A stretch of 64,000 bases of DNA, from contig CAKSFT010000006.1 in assembly GCA_934454145.1 (NCBI GenBank), forward strand, positions 65,149 through 129,148, read 5' to 3'. Both the position numbers and the translations under genes were made by a program. How positions within the stretch are numbered: position 1 is the stretch's first letter; each line of letters opens with the position of its first letter. Under the pieces are notes generated by a model, which ran no database searches, was not told the DNA's origin, and worked only from the letters and a program-made list of their open reading frames with translations. Origin of the DNA: an uncultured Clostridia bacterium. GTDB taxonomy: Bacteria; Bacillota; Clostridia; UBA1381. Of the stretch, positions 6,188-62,964 are shown piece after piece.

Positions 6188-6263
6188 CAAATTTCGTCAA
6201 TCCTTTTTTCAGTTATATATGAGGAGGCAAAACCCCGGAGTTTTTGCCTCCTCTGCTTCCCGG

Positions 6264-6449
6264 AGGGGATAGAAAAAAAGCTTTGGAATTAACAAACTGA
6301 ACCAAAGCTTTAGCTTTGGGTTACCCGACGGCGTACATGGGTACGCCAAGCGGTTAAGTTTGTTGATAGCAAGAAACGAAAAATCATATTCTCTATAATG
6401 TGTGCTTTACTTCTTTTCTTGCGTTCCGGAATTTTTTTACATTCCCTCC
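6264..6449 (-). ncRNA. Candidate structured RNA, repeat family 2 copy 1 (three-way junction plus intrinsic terminator)
   Basis: Nested helices:
- AACAAACT 6291-6298 / AGTTTGTT 6357-6364
- CCAAAGC 6302-6308 / GCTTTGG 6313-6319
- GGCGTAC 6330-6336 / GTACGCC 6341-6347
- GCAAGAAA 6369-6376 / TTTCTTGC 6415-6422
On the minus strand the element ends in AAAGCTTTGG...CCAAAGCTTT plus a U-run. A second copy lies at 35302-35539. Confidence 0.35.
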
Positions 6450-6488
6450 GCATATTTGCAAAGACACCCTTGGCTTTGCAAGTGTTTA

Positions 6489-7640
6489 TCAAACTATATA
6501 ATCAGCCGGGCGCTCTTCTTCCAGACCATATCTGTTCAGAATCGCACTGATAATCCTCCCCGAGGCATTTCCGTCCCCATACGGATTTGCCGCATGCGCC
6601 ATCTTTTTGTAGCTTTCTTCATTGTCAAGCAAATCCTTTGCCATTGCAACAATATCTTCATATTCCACACCGGCAAGTTTCACCGTCCCTGCCTTCACGG
6701 CCTCGGGGCGTTCCGTTTCACGGCGCAAAACAAGCACAGGCTTCGCCAATGCCGGCGCCTCCTCCTGTATTCCGCCCGAATCGGTCATCACCATAAAACT
6801 GCGGTGGATAGCATTGTGCAAATCGTCCACCGTCACCGGGTCTGTCAGATGCACCCCGGGGACATCGTCAAGAATCCCAAACACTGTTTCTCTCACAGCC
6901 GGGTTCAGATGCACAGGATACACAATTTCAACATCACTGTATTCATTCACAATGGTCTTGAGTGCATTGCATATGTTCTCAAGCGGCTTGCCAAGATTTT
7001 CTCTGCGGTGTGCGGTCACCACAATCACACGCTTGTTCTCAAAGTCCAGCTCTCCCATGACCTTGTCCTGAAAAACATATCCGTCGCGCACGGTGGTCTT
7101 AAGCGCATCAATAACGGTATTTCCCGTTATGTATATATTTTCTGCATTTATATTTTCTTTCAGCAGATTTTCTTTGTTCTGCACTGTCGGCGAAAAATGC
7201 ATGTCTGCAATTCTCCCTGTCAGGTTGCGATTCATTTCTTCCGGGAAGGGTGAATATTTGTCATATGTCCTGAGCCCTGCCTCGACATGCCCCACGCTGA
7301 CCTGGTTATAAAAAGCCGCAAGTGCACCTGCAAAGCTTGTTGTTGTGTCCCCGTGCACCAAAACAATGTCAGGCTTTGCTTCTTTTATAACTCCGTCAAG
7401 TCCTTCAAGCACCCTTGTCGTAATCCCCAAAAGGCTCTGGCGCTGTTTCATGATATCCAAGTCATAGTCGGGCTTTATGCCAAACAGCTCCAAAACCTGG
7501 TCAAGCATTTCCCTGTGCTGTGCCGTAACGCAGACAACACTCTCAATCTGCGGATTTTTTTCCATTTCAATCGCAAGCGGCGCCATCTTGACAGCCTCCG
7601 GGCGCGTCCCGAAAACCGTCATCACTTTAATCTTTTTCAT
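6489..7640 (-). CDS. mnaA: UDP-N-acetylglucosamine 2-epimerase (non-hydrolysing)
   Basis: 383 aa. MKKIKVMTVFGTRPEAVKMAPL...HVEAGLRT...DSGGIQEE are WecB/MnaA signatures. Confidence 0.9.
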   Translation of the reverse strand: MKKIKVMTVFGTRPEAVKMAPLAIEMEKNPQIESVVCVTAQHREMLDQVLELFGIKPDYDLDIMKQRQSLLGITTRVLEGLDGVIKEAKPDIVLVHGDTTTSFAGALAAFYNQVSVGHVEAGLRTYDKYSPFPEEMNRNLTGRIADMHFSPTVQNKENLLKENINAENIYITGNTVIDALKTTVRDGYVFQDKVMGELDFENKRVIVVTAHRRENLGKPLENICNALKTIVNEYSDVEIVYPVHLNPAVRETVFGILDDVPGVHLTDPVTVDDLHNAIHRSFMVMTDSGGIQEEAPALAKPVLVLRRETERPEAVKAGTVKLAGVEYEDIVAMAKDLLDNEESYKKMAHAANPYGDGNASGRIISAILNRYGLEEERPADYIV

Positions 7641-15111: not shown

Positions 15112-15144
15112 CTCTCGTCCTCTCCCAAAATTTTATAACTATAT

Positions 15145-15360
15145 GGGTAATTGTAAAACTAACGTTTTTCAATTAAATTTCTTGGGTAGAAATAAAAAGT
15201 TCCATCTGATTTTAACTTTACGACAGGCCGAAACTTTTTATTTCAGCCAAAAATGACGCACATGCCGTCATTTTTGATTGCCAATCAGGGGGGTTGGCAC
15301 CCCCGATACTCCCGCAAAGATGCGGTAGGTAATTGTAAAATTTACATTTTACAATTACCT
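15145..15360. mobile_element. MITE-like non-coding element, family P copy A (216 nt)
   Basis: The two ends are inverted palindromes: GTAATTGTAAAAC... and ...AGGTAATTGTAAAAT-ttac-ATTTTACAATTACCT. At least 4 internal stem-loops. Flanked by the identical 15-mer ATTTTATAACTATAT at 15130-15144 and 15361-15375. Confidence 0.7.
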
Positions 15361-15459
15361 ATTTTATAACTATATTCTAACATATGATACCGCAAATTTC
15401 AAGATTATCTTTGCCGTGCCGAAAAAACATGGCCAAATATATTTTTTTCAAAAAAATAC

Positions 15460-35256: not shown

Positions 35257-35289
35257 GGGCTGTAAAAAATCAATTGATTTTTTACAGCC
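35257..35289. terminator. Bidirectional terminator hairpin GGGCTGTAAAAAAT-caattg-ATTTTTTACAGCC
   Basis: Perfect stem with an A-run before and T-rich sequence after. It follows the SCP2 gene. Confidence 0.7.
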
Positions 35290-35301
35290 TTTGATTTTCA
35301 G

Positions 35302-35539
35302 AGGAGATAGGAAAAAGCTTTGGAATTAACAAACTAAGCCAAAGCCTTTGCTTTGGTTTACCCGACGGCGTACACGGGCACGCCGAGCGGCGAGGTTTGT
35401 TGACAGCAAGAAACAAGAAATTATACGAAACCCATTTTTTGATTTTTCTGCCATAATAAAACCAAACTGTAACAATTGTATTTTCTATAGTGTGCGCTTC
35501 ACTTCTTTTCTTGCGTTCCGAAGTTTTTTACATCCCCTT
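35302..35539 (-). ncRNA. Candidate structured RNA, repeat family 2 copy 2
   Basis: Same helices as 6264-6449, with changes confined to loops or giving G-U pairs on the minus strand. About 55 extra nt are inserted in the loop of the outer GCAAGAAA/TTTCTTGC helix. Confidence 0.35.
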
Positions 35540-37525: not shown

Positions 37526-37556
37526 AGTTTTTTCTCCTTTTTTCTGATTTTTGCAT

Positions 37557-37590
37557 AGGTAATTGTAAAATGCAGATTTTGCAATTACCT
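37557..37590. repeat. Solo family P palindrome in the 5' UTR of the glycoside hydrolase gene
   Basis: AGGTAATTGTAAAAT-gcag-ATTTTGCAATTACCT. It lies 31 nt upstream of the ATG at 37525 and downstream of the promoter at 37634-37662. Confidence 0.7.
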
Positions 37591-37633
37591 GTCTGATTTT
37601 TACCGTTTTTTTTTGGAATTATTATCTTTTCAG

Positions 37634-37662
37634 ATTATATAACACAGTGCACGAAAAGTCAA
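37634..37662 (-). promoter_or_regulatory. Sigma-70-type promoter for the glycoside hydrolase gene: TTGACT, 17 nt spacer, TATAAT (minus strand)
   Basis: Reverse complement of 37657-37662 is TTGACT. Spacer is 17 nt. Reverse complement of 37634-37639 is TATAAT. Confidence 0.6.
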
Positions 37663-37774
37663 CAAATATATGCCAAAATTTTTATTTTTTCCATGCTCTC
37701 TGCTTTCTTTGGTGCTCTTTTTTTCCGTGCGGCCGATATTTTTGGTTATATATCAAAAAAATTGAGGAAATTAC

Positions 37775-37803
37775 TTGAAAAATCCTTATAAAAATGATAT
37801 AAT
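37775..37803 (+). promoter_or_regulatory. Sigma-70-type promoter for recJ: TTGAAA, 17 nt spacer, TATAAT
   Basis: TTGAAA at 37775-37780, 17-nt spacer, TATAAT at 37798-37803. Confidence 0.55.
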
Positions 37804-37846
37804 TAAGATTGTTACATTATTAATATGTAACTGATTATAAAAACAA

Positions 37847-37979
37847 TGTTTTACAATTACAGACTAGAGCGGAAATGACACACATGCCGTCATTTTTGAT
37901 TACCAATCAGGGGGTGGCACCCCCGATACCCCGCAAAGATGCGGTGGCTAATTGTAAAATTTACATTTTACAATTACCT
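37847..37979. mobile_element. Truncated family P MITE-like copy C (right ~2/3 only)
   Basis: Matches copy A from AAATGAC.CACATGCCGTCATTTTTGATT.CCAATCAGGGG...CCGCAAAGATGCGGT through the terminal palindrome. The left part is replaced by a half palindrome TTTTACAATTAC. Confidence 0.65.
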
Positions 37980-38007
37980 AAAACAATTTAAATTTTGGGA
38001 GAATCTT

Positions 38008-46793: not shown

Positions 46794-46830
46794 GGGCTGA
46801 TTAAAAAACAATTGATTTTTTAATCAGCCC
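46794..46830. terminator. Bidirectional terminator hairpin GGGCTGATTAAAAAA-caattg-ATTTTTTAATCAGCCC
   Basis: 16-bp stem between the convergent MFS and eno genes. It is a sequence relative of the hairpin at 35257-35289. Confidence 0.7.
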
Positions 46831-46865
46831 TTGCTTTTGGGAAAAAGGAGAAACAGTAACATTTA

Positions 46866-46912
46866 CTTTTTTCTTCTTTTCTTGTGTTCCGGAGTGTTTT
46901 TACATCTCCCTT
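46866..46912 (-). repeat. Short family 2 module in the eno 3' UTR
   Basis: Minus strand reads AAGGGAGATGTAAAAACACTCCGGAACACAAGAAAAGAAG, starting 4 nt after the eno stop. It matches the 5' ends of the elements at 6405-6449 and 35495-35539. Confidence 0.4.
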
Positions 46913-58537: not shown

Positions 58538-58640
58538 ATCCAAAATACCTCTCTTTTTTTGGTTCTTTATACTATTATATACCAATGCCATACATTTAAC
58601 AAGTATTATTTCAAAATATTCTCCTCACCTTTAGCAAAAT

Positions 58641-58860
58641 AGGTAATTGTAAAATGTAAATTTTACAATTACCACCGCATCTTTGCGGGGGTATCGGGGG
58701 TGCCAACCCCTGATTGGTAATCAAAAATGACGACATGTGCGTCATTTTTGGCTGAAATAAAAAGTTTCAACCTGTCGTGAAGTTAAAACCGGATGGAACT
58801 TTTTATTTCTACCCAAGAATTTTAATTGGAAACGTTAGTTTTACAATTACTTATTTATGC
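58641..58860. mobile_element. MITE-like non-coding element, family P copy B (inverted relative to copy A)
   Basis: The reverse complement aligns end to end with 15148-15360. By manual alignment there are roughly a dozen substitutions and a few 1-2 nt indels. Confidence 0.7.
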
Positions 58861-60082: not shown

Positions 60083-60253
60083 TTATGCCTGTTCCGGCGC
60101 GCCTACAGGGCAAGTATCTGCACAAGCTCCGCATTCGATGCAGGTAGCTTCGTCAATAACATAAGCAGCATCACCTTCTGAAATAGCGCTTACAGGACAT
60201 GCATCTGCACAAGCTCCGCAGCTGATGCATGCATCACTGATTTTATATGCCAT
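60083..60253 (-). CDS. fdx: 2x[4Fe-4S] clostridial-type ferredoxin (56 aa)
   Basis: Below the ORF-track length cut-off. My translation is MAYKISDACISCGACADACPVSAISEGDAAYVIDEATCIECGACADTCPVGAPEQA, with two CxxCxxCxxxCP motifs. AAGGAGG lies 8 nt upstream. Confidence 0.9.
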   Translation of the reverse strand: MAYKISDACISCGACADACPVSAISEGDAAYVIDEATCIECGACADTCPVGAPEQA

Positions 60254-62854: not shown

Positions 62855-62884
62855 CACTTCTCCTTTGTATAAATTTTTATTCAA

Positions 62885-62913
62885 GTAATTGTAAAACTGA
62901 TGTTTTACAATTA
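62885..62913. repeat. Solo family P palindrome (left-end type), 30 nt upstream of the lipoprotein ATG
   Basis: GTAATTGTAAAAC-tgat-GTTTTACAATTA. Confidence 0.65.
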
Positions 62914-62925
62914 AAATGCTGAGGT

Positions 62926-62964
62926 AAAAATAAAAAGTGTGCAGACACATCAAAGCCTGCACAC
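62926..62964 (-). terminator. Intrinsic terminator with no upstream CDS (end of a leader or sRNA)
   Basis: Minus strand: GTGTGCAG-gctttgatgtgt-CTGCACAC followed by TTTTTATTTTT. Confidence 0.6.

Follow-up and report, generated by a model that had tools for sequence, protein, structure and literature searches.

What is the short, strongly folding segment that separates an mnaA-like gene from a MATE efflux gene in an uncultured Clostridia bacterium? The segment lies on the minus strand of a 64,000-nt stretch of contig CAKSFT010000006.1, referred to here as the window, which belongs to a source genome of 2.68 Mb in 16 contigs (G000). A preliminary description presented it as a repeat in which a three-way junction and an overlapping intrinsic terminator exclude one another, the logic of a riboswitch or attenuator. 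Here, the repeat family of the segment is called the element and the flagged copy is called copy 1. The results presented below indicate that the segment is probably a copy, shortened by an internal deletion, of a non-coding and non-autonomous repeat family that is dispersed in uncultured gut Clostridia (Christensenellales-like metagenome-assembled genomes, MAGs). On the sequences compared, the element is best read as a repeat resembling MITEs (miniature transposable elements with inverted repeats), BOX and ERIC, with gain-and-loss polymorphism, that would be co-transcribed as a 3' untranslated region (UTR).

Copy 1, a short-form whole element, occupies 6262-6449 of the window on the minus strand, to which all window coordinates of the element and its parts refer; a covariance model of the family (R1, described below) sets its limits at 6254-6447 (167.1 bits, E = 1.3e-36). 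Pfam assigns the neighbouring genes, both on the same strand, to Epimerase_2 (the mnaA-like gene, before) and MatE (after), in agreement with the preliminary placement of the segment between the mnaA stop and the MATE start on their strand. Copy 1 begins 40 nt beyond the mnaA stop codon (6491-6489). Every motif listed in that description was found on the minus strand at its position, and the repeat status that it claimed was confirmed by one further full copy and one copy of the 5' module in the window. Copy 2, a long form at 35292-35538 (covariance model, 146.8 bits), begins about 13 nt past the stop codon of a glycoside-hydrolase gene, with a palindromic terminator that is bidirectional (35257-35290) just behind it. 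Copy 3 (46842-46909), found in a repeat search of the window, is a truncated derivative comprising the 5' module only; it begins about 6 nt past the enolase stop codon, and a palindromic terminator follows it as well.

Copies are gained and lost at single loci. Orthologues of mnaA and the MATE gene are adjacent in three congeners (G001, G002 and G003), and the element is absent from all three junctions. In G001 and G003 the junction consists of stop codon, Shine-Dalgarno sequence and ATG within about 20 nt; the G002 spacer measures 76 nt and opens with a solo 5' motif, GGGAATGTTAAAAAC. The G000 junction holds about 290 nt of extra DNA, made up of a small hairpin between the mnaA stop and the element (UUGCAAAG...CUUUGCAA, 6456-6481), the element itself, and a strong hairpin just 3' of the element that has no U-tract (GAGGAGGCAAAA...UUUUGCCUCCUC, 6221-6253). 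Both hairpins, read from the sequence, are missing from the empty orthologous sites, and the mnaA-MATE insertion is therefore a composite of about 290 nt. Further empty sites were sought with concatenated-flank queries, and for three more G000 copies the orthologous G002 sites are unoccupied by the element: one is a true empty site, one holds a different repeat, and one keeps only the 5' terminal motif before a terminator. The sequence of the last of these three sites is consistent with deletion between TAAAAA repeats.

The same turnover was seen outside the family of the source genome. In g26, a genus of another, neighbouring family, one gene end exists in filled, remnant and empty states. 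It is empty in G028, G036 and G038, where the stop codon is followed by an A-tract and a terminator; it is filled in G168 and G169, where the last codon and the stop codon are replaced by the element; and in G167 a remnant of about 20 nt of the element's 5' end is found. The labels serS-like and rubredoxin-like given to genes in g26 derive from C-terminal peptides only. A partial second copy follows some copies in this genus, or copies occur as tandem pairs (L230/L231 in G168 and G169; L236/L241 in G167:C380), as in one example where AATTCTCCGGATACGAACAAAC is repeated directly 3' of the element.

Copies lodge, with a fixed polarity, in the few nucleotides between a stop codon and a terminator hairpin. 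In G000, a same-strand gene ends just upstream of 20 of 24 matches. Context statistics were then compiled for 97 distinct full copies from many genomes, with genes called by a longest-ORF (open reading frame) heuristic. The upstream gene is on the same strand for 82 copies and on the opposite strand for 10, and the gap between stop codon and element has a median of 5.5 nt (interquartile range 3-13). Because convergent gene pairs make the same-strand count partly automatic, the two ends of the element were compared directly: an incoming stop codon lies no more than 30 nt from the 5' end in 69 of the 97 copies, and in 9 copies it lies that close to the 3' end. Of the 97 copies, 44 face a convergent downstream gene, whose stop codon lies at a median distance of 51.5 nt, space enough for a terminator. 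A strong hairpin is present within 70 nt downstream of 60 of 76 copies, compared to 22 of 76 upstream. The genes that end before the element are unrelated to one another and include those for an epimerase, a glycoside hydrolase, enolase, a HAD hydrolase, a class II aminoacyl-tRNA synthetase, flavodoxin, a DnaC/IstB-like ATPase, a histidine kinase and YpeB. A promoter scan found no -35/-10 pair on the element's strand inside copy 1 or copy 2.

The terminator behind the element is often a member of one palindromic, CAATTG-centred family, which travels with the element or attracts it. The downstream hairpin has the form of this family (A-run, CAnnTG, T-run) in 30 of the 76 copies, and the family, GGCTGT(nn)AAAAA(G)TCAATTGA(C)TTTTT(nn)ACAGCC, occupies about 41 G000 sites, 9 of which abut the element. 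It is also present in other genera, and its occurrences in the window are at 35257-35290 and about 46800-46835. Quite apart from the element, the palindrome is itself a dispersed repeat that is conserved, bidirectional and terminator-like.

The family is widespread. BLAST detected it in 12 of 41 relatives, and the covariance model in 87 of 151 sampled genomes, representing 18 of 25 genera of the bacterial family, with up to at least 19 copies per genome; all six g26 genomes also carry it by the model. The carriers that bear names are MAGs of uncultured gut Clostridia, sampled from human cohorts (the Hadza among them) and from the rectum of water deer; one is a Congzhengia sp. Within G000, BLAST gave 36 matches and the covariance model 14, and nhmmer found nine full-length long copies and many fragments. 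As the preliminary description had supposed, this is not a recognised Rfam family: Rfam 15 gave no match at gathering score across the 64-kb window, and a permissive scan of the region (to E = 10) returned only unrelated matches far under threshold. A full-text literature search found no description of the element.

The fold of copy 1 was examined together with its parts. The 186-nt segment has a minimum free energy of -51.2 kcal/mol, compared to a shuffle mean of -35.4 ± 3.8 (z = -4.2, with one of 200 shuffles equal). The minimum-free-energy fold, RNAalifold and covariation of the ends all point to a closing helix, P1/P1b, that the preliminary description did not contain, in which the 5' end (6449-6424; GGAGGG, AUG, A7UU, GGAA) pairs with the 3' end (6288-6262; UUCC, AG, U7, UAU, CCCCUCC). 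Because the two ends pair, the U-run is the partner of the 5' A-run. Within this helix lie the P2 hairpin (6369-6422), formed by GCAAGAAA at 6422-6415 and TTTCTTGC at 6376-6369, and a three-way junction core (6291-6364). The core consists of P3 (AACAAACT at 6364-6357 with AGTTTGTT at 6298-6291; AACAAACU/AGUUUGUU), P4 (GGCGTAC at 6347-6341 with GTACGCC at 6336-6330, loop CCAU) and P5 (CCAAAGC at 6319-6313 with GCTTTGG at 6308-6302, loop UAAA); pairing amounts to 94.5-97.8% in helices 5-8, and every one of them shows double changes. The three-way junction proposed earlier is upheld by strong covariation, and the assignment of GCAAGAAA/TTTCTTGC as an outer helix is not: both strands lie 5' of AACAAACT, which makes P2 a separate hairpin that does not enclose the junction.

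Covariation across homologues had been named as a check on this fold, and it was found. RNAalifold applied to 22 short-form copies gave a structure of 43 pairs, comprising a terminal G/C clamp of P1, an A-run/U-run helix, GGA/UCC (P1b), the P2 hairpin and the P3-P4-P5 junction. The model R1 was built from this alignment. Aligned to it were 85 matches drawn from many genomes, of which 77 are distinct. Among the 77 copies, standard pairs fill 95.9% of cells, compared to 35-50% when partners are slid by 1-3 columns, and 30 of the 43 pairs show changes on both sides, compared to 8-11 when slid; an alignment fitted to the model favours the structure somewhat, and the margin is large. None of 500 shuffles matched the observed pairing values. 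P2 (GCAAGAAA with UUUCUUGC) has double changes in all six of its pairs among copies.

Conservation is distributed unevenly along the element. P3 is nearly invariant, and conservation reaches at least 95% at several unpaired positions of the junction. The outer 6-8 bp vary among copies, even inside one genome, and the ends are always complementary; variants include GGGGAU/AUCCCC, GGUGAU/AUCACC, GAGGAU/AUCCUC, GAAAAU/AUUUUC and AUGGAU/AUCCAU, and in another family UUGCGUA/UACGCAA, CGAAAGC/GCUUUCG and GGAGCU/AGCUCC. The empty orthologous sites do not contain the 5' strand of P1, which shows that the element brings this strand along. A target-derived 5' strand, with guide-like insertion at matching targets, was rejected on the same ground. 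The 3' module is 91-94% identical between G000 and G002 at non-orthologous sites, compared to 65-82% for flanking coding DNA. A tree of the copies groups them by genome only in part, with genera intermixed, and swaps of the P4 allele resembling gene conversion were observed. G-U departures from standard pairing number 125 and A-C departures 71; a single conserved column contributes 60 of the G-U cells, and with that column and one A-C-prone column removed the counts are 65 and 52. As a test of strand asymmetry this comparison is uninformative, because the single conserved G-U column drives the excess. Neither an ATG-TAA frame at the 5' end nor a 60-aa ORF at 6310-6492 is kept among copies, since an indel shifts the frame between copies 1 and 2 of the window, and no shared reading frame was found among the G003 copies on reading their sequences.

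The element occurs in two main sizes, a short form of 150-170 nt and a long form of about 250 nt, which differ by an AT-rich B insert of about 75 nt within the P2 loop. Copy 1 keeps only a remnant of this insert in its P2 loop, and it is an internal-deletion derivative of the long form that has lost most of B. In G003, a sister species, a clean short form (150-170 nt) that has no B insert is dominant. Truncated and internally deleted derivatives are common. A divergent subfamily in G000 (C7:163722-163947, C7:169052-169271 and C1:359748-359872) has GCAAAAAGG/CCUUUUUGC as P2, a different insert in the P2 loop and no P5 hairpin, which indicates that the architecture tolerates the loss of one junction arm. 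Fragments consisting of the B insert only stand alone at G000 C1:400652-400703 and C5:142517-142595, and the B insert may itself be a separate, small, insertion-prone unit.

Several observations weigh against reading the element as a mobile repeat of the MITE kind. Neither G000 nor some 1 Mb of loci fetched from many genomes yielded a larger element with these ends, and the only two far end pairs detected were neighbouring separate copies. Y1/RAYT genes (PF01797) are not co-distributed with the element in a profile search of 41 genomes: G009 has 16-20 copies and no PF01797 match, and many element-free genomes have PF01797. Phage and plasmid collections searched by BLAST, and viral-contig collections searched by pattern scan, gave no match. 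Direct repeats in the flanks average 3.03 nt compared to 2.63 nt when permuted (0 of 500 permutations as high) and are short, variable and A-rich; this A-rich signal is consistent with insertion into the A-tract that precedes terminator hairpins. Some copies are kept at orthologous loci across species of genus g26. Finally, a terminal helix that is hypervariable and always complementary, around strongly conserved junction nucleotides, has more the look of an RNA domain under selection than of the transposase-binding terminal inverted repeats (TIRs) of a MITE. An intact IS200-type Y1 transposase gene is present in G000 (C8:33827-34183; PF01797, 140 bits), and no link between it and the element was found.

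That the element serves the MATE gene as a riboswitch or attenuator leader, alternating between the junction fold and an intrinsic terminator, is the explanation to which we give the least credence, and it is now highly improbable. A second CCAAAGC at 6286-6280 is followed by T7 at 6279-6273, and an alternative terminator (6273-6311) can form from AAAGCUUUGG at 6311-6302, a 15-nt loop, CCAAAGCUUU at 6286-6277 and a U-run to 6273 (-10.9 kcal/mol in isolation). The earlier claim of a terminator overlapping the junction fold survives to the extent that two mutually exclusive pairings can be drawn in most copies, with the terminator helix paired in 88.8% of cells; as a switch, the arrangement is disfavoured by weak covariation (0.154 compared to 0.119 in shuffles) and by being the weaker conformer, since enforcing the terminator worsens the fold by 6.7 kcal/mol for the full element and by 4.5 when polymerase stands at the U-run. 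The terminator helix also competes with P1b, which is better supported. For column 281, covariation with the P1b partner is seen in 16 sequences and with the terminator partner in 6. The stem has 7-10 bp and U7, but its loop is 15 nt and a terminator scan does not call it; subfamilies lacking P5 are unable to form it, and a separate strong terminator follows most copies. The CCAAAGC...U7 'terminator' is read here as a by-product of the likeness between the 3' strand of P1b and the 5' arm of P5. The conserved junction core and the same-strand gene after copy 1 would suit a leader, but the element follows the stop codons of unrelated genes and faces a convergent gene as often as described above, its neighbours span many functions (MatE among them) with no single pathway or gene family, and the orthologous mnaA-MATE junctions do without it; the riboswitch or attenuator logic of the preliminary description is accordingly not supported. 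Multicopy small RNA (sRNA) families occur in other bacteria, and TATAAT-like words in the AT-rich B insert and a U-run after the structured core could be taken to mark independently transcribed sRNAs, some 110-190 nt long, that each possess a promoter (in the B insert, for example) and end at the U-run. This is very unlikely, given that no -35/-10 pair is predicted on the element's strand in either copy scanned, that the short form, dominant in G003 and represented in the window by copy 1, lacks the B insert, and that part of the sequence required by the conserved closing helix would lie upstream of such a promoter.

Two further explanations concern the level at which the fold is maintained. 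If the covariation reflected a DNA hairpin, the element could be a folded single-strand site for a recombinase or an HUH/Y1 enzyme, such as attC, REP/RAYT or IS200/IS605 ends. The balance of G-U and A-C departures, the lack of a clean target duplication, the fixed polarity right after ORFs, which resembles the attC arrangement, and a structure that is kept while its terminal sequence is not, as in attC sites, agree with this idea; it is nonetheless improbable, because Y1 transposases do not co-occur with the element, copies are scattered behind housekeeping genes and not in cassette arrays, and a conserved interior with variable ends is the reverse of attC. Stronger, and held as a tentative possibility compatible with the repeat reading, is a cis-acting RNA domain selected in 3' UTRs, whether a platform for a protein or RNase, a stabiliser of the mRNA 3' end, or a structure opened by terminating ribosomes, with dispersal being secondary. 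In its support are a closing helix that varies and stays complementary, junction nucleotides and a P3 nearly invariant across genera, one G-U pair kept in 60 of 77 copies, the strict polarity relative to transcription, the copies held at orthologous g26 loci, and conservation of the element exceeding that of flanking coding DNA; for the ribosome variant, the 5' strand begins about 5 nt past the stop codon. Counting against it, the G-U and A-C departures outside that one pair are balanced and give no clear RNA-strand asymmetry, sister species lack copies at orthologous sites and have no replacement, and many copies are truncated. The polarity, moreover, could also come from insertion at the feet of terminators or from co-mobilisation with a terminator. 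Turnover, truncated derivatives and P4-allele swaps speak for a selfish or DNA-level repeat.

Under the favoured reading of a dispersed repeat, each copy would be transcribed as the 3' UTR of the gene upstream, having no promoter of its own. Copy 1 would be a lineage-specific insertion that split a once-tight mnaA-MATE operon junction, and it would sense no ligand on behalf of the MATE gene. Its most likely consequence would be a bulky, nuclease-resistant structure in the 3' UTR before the terminator, comparable to that of REP, ERIC, BOX and bcr repeats. A more ambitious version, which we regard as doubtful, holds that the element is a portable 3'-UTR module, a selected RNA domain and not only a selfish repeat. 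In such a module the closing helix would begin within a ribosome footprint of the stop codon, and the fate of the upstream mRNA would be set by terminating ribosomes, or else by an RNase or RNA-binding protein dedicated to the invariant three-way junction. The element would spread among gut Clostridia, with the palindromic terminator, as a cassette. If true, this would make the family a bacterial counterpart of the 3'-UTR regulatory elements derived from short interspersed nuclear elements (SINEs) and a new structured-RNA class with hundreds of members.

The analysis removes a false riboswitch lead and defines a large, uncatalogued family of structured repeats with a working covariance model and an architecture, in a clade of uncultured, health-associated gut bacteria. 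With the element annotated, false calls of ORFs, sRNAs and riboswitches are avoided in these MAGs, and its annotation explains varying intergenic lengths and split operons such as mnaA-MATE. Three features are unusual together among small bacterial repeats: strict polarity close to stop codons, a terminal helix conserved in complementarity and not in sequence, and an invariant junction core. This combination makes the family a good test case for RNA-level selection on such repeats. If the element modulates 3'-end stability or termination, it would also be a natural portable 3'-UTR part.

The window contains other repeats. A second, unrelated family of GTAATTGTAAAA...TTTTACAATTAC palindromes (families D1, D2 and D5) is found at 15135-15382, 37541-37980, 58625-58675 and 62873-62938, and where a G000 copy of the element has its orthologous site in G002, one such site holds a copy of this family. 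A 42-nt direct repeat with 95% identity, AAATGACGCACATGCCGTCATTTTTGATTGCCAATCAGGGGG, is located at 15251-15292 and 37873-37914 and is probably part of this other family. A 44-nt near-tandem repeat, 84% identical and 87 nt apart (60099-60142 and 60186-60229), may be an internal duplication inside a coding region.

How, then, does the element compare with known systems? Like a riboswitch aptamer with its expression platform, it has a closing helix that varies, around a junction of several helices that is conserved, and it may form a mutually exclusive terminator; it differs in being dispersed through the 3' UTRs of unrelated genes, in being insertion-polymorphic and absent at orthologous sites, and in having a terminator that lacks support. 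The likeness to dispersed repeats is closer. BOX of Streptococcus pneumoniae (boxA-boxB-boxC), which is listed among intergenic repeats (PMC3184786), is likewise dispersed, non-coding, modular with an optional middle module, strongly folding, intergenic, co-transcribed and devoid of its own transposase. The element is unrelated to BOX in sequence and has in addition a three-way-junction core with conserved nucleotides and a strict stop-proximal position and polarity; its middle module is single and sits in a hairpin loop, and is not tandem.

MITEs are defined by conserved TIRs and flanking target duplications (PMC3184786). As in the Correia/NEMIS repeats of Neisseria and RUP of S. pneumoniae, the element is small, multicopy and non-autonomous, with complementary ends and a long-stem fold, and such repeats are often co-transcribed. 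It is non-coding and dispersed, with sizes of 150-250 nt and 14 model matches in G000 over many contigs, and it shows presence/absence polymorphism, with four G000 sites unoccupied in congeners. In contrast to MITEs, its terminal sequence is hypervariable, its duplication signal is weak and A-rich, and no parent insertion sequence was found. REP are hairpins of 20-40 nt linked to RAYT (Y1), whereas the element measures 150-250 nt, has a branched fold and does not co-occur with Y1. ERIC is not known to have a fixed polarity relative to stop codons. Both ERIC/IRU and REP/BIME of enterobacteria are imperfect palindromes within extragenic DNA that is transcribed; they are enriched where genes converge and at the 3' ends of genes, and an effect on mRNA stability has been proposed for them (PMC3184786).

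A dispersed repeat with a terminator-like motif has also been described (PMC3184786). The element differs from it in being a structured module upstream of the terminator hairpin whose own internal terminator-like pairing is weak; its companion, the CAATTG palindrome, is the dispersed terminator-like part, with about 41 copies. Among Firmicutes, bcr1-bcr3 of the Bacillus cereus group are MITE-like repeats in UTRs and operon intergenic regions, bcr3 correlates with longer mRNA half-life, and about half of the copies of bcr1-bcr18 combined are expressed within mRNA (PMC3446304). The element has a different sequence and host clade, and the text of PMC3446304 describes neither a stop-abutting polarity nor a three-way-junction core. 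By its behaviour, the element is a family of the dispersed structured intergenic repeat kind that includes BOX, ERIC, REP/BIME, SPRITE, Correia, RUP and bcr1-3.

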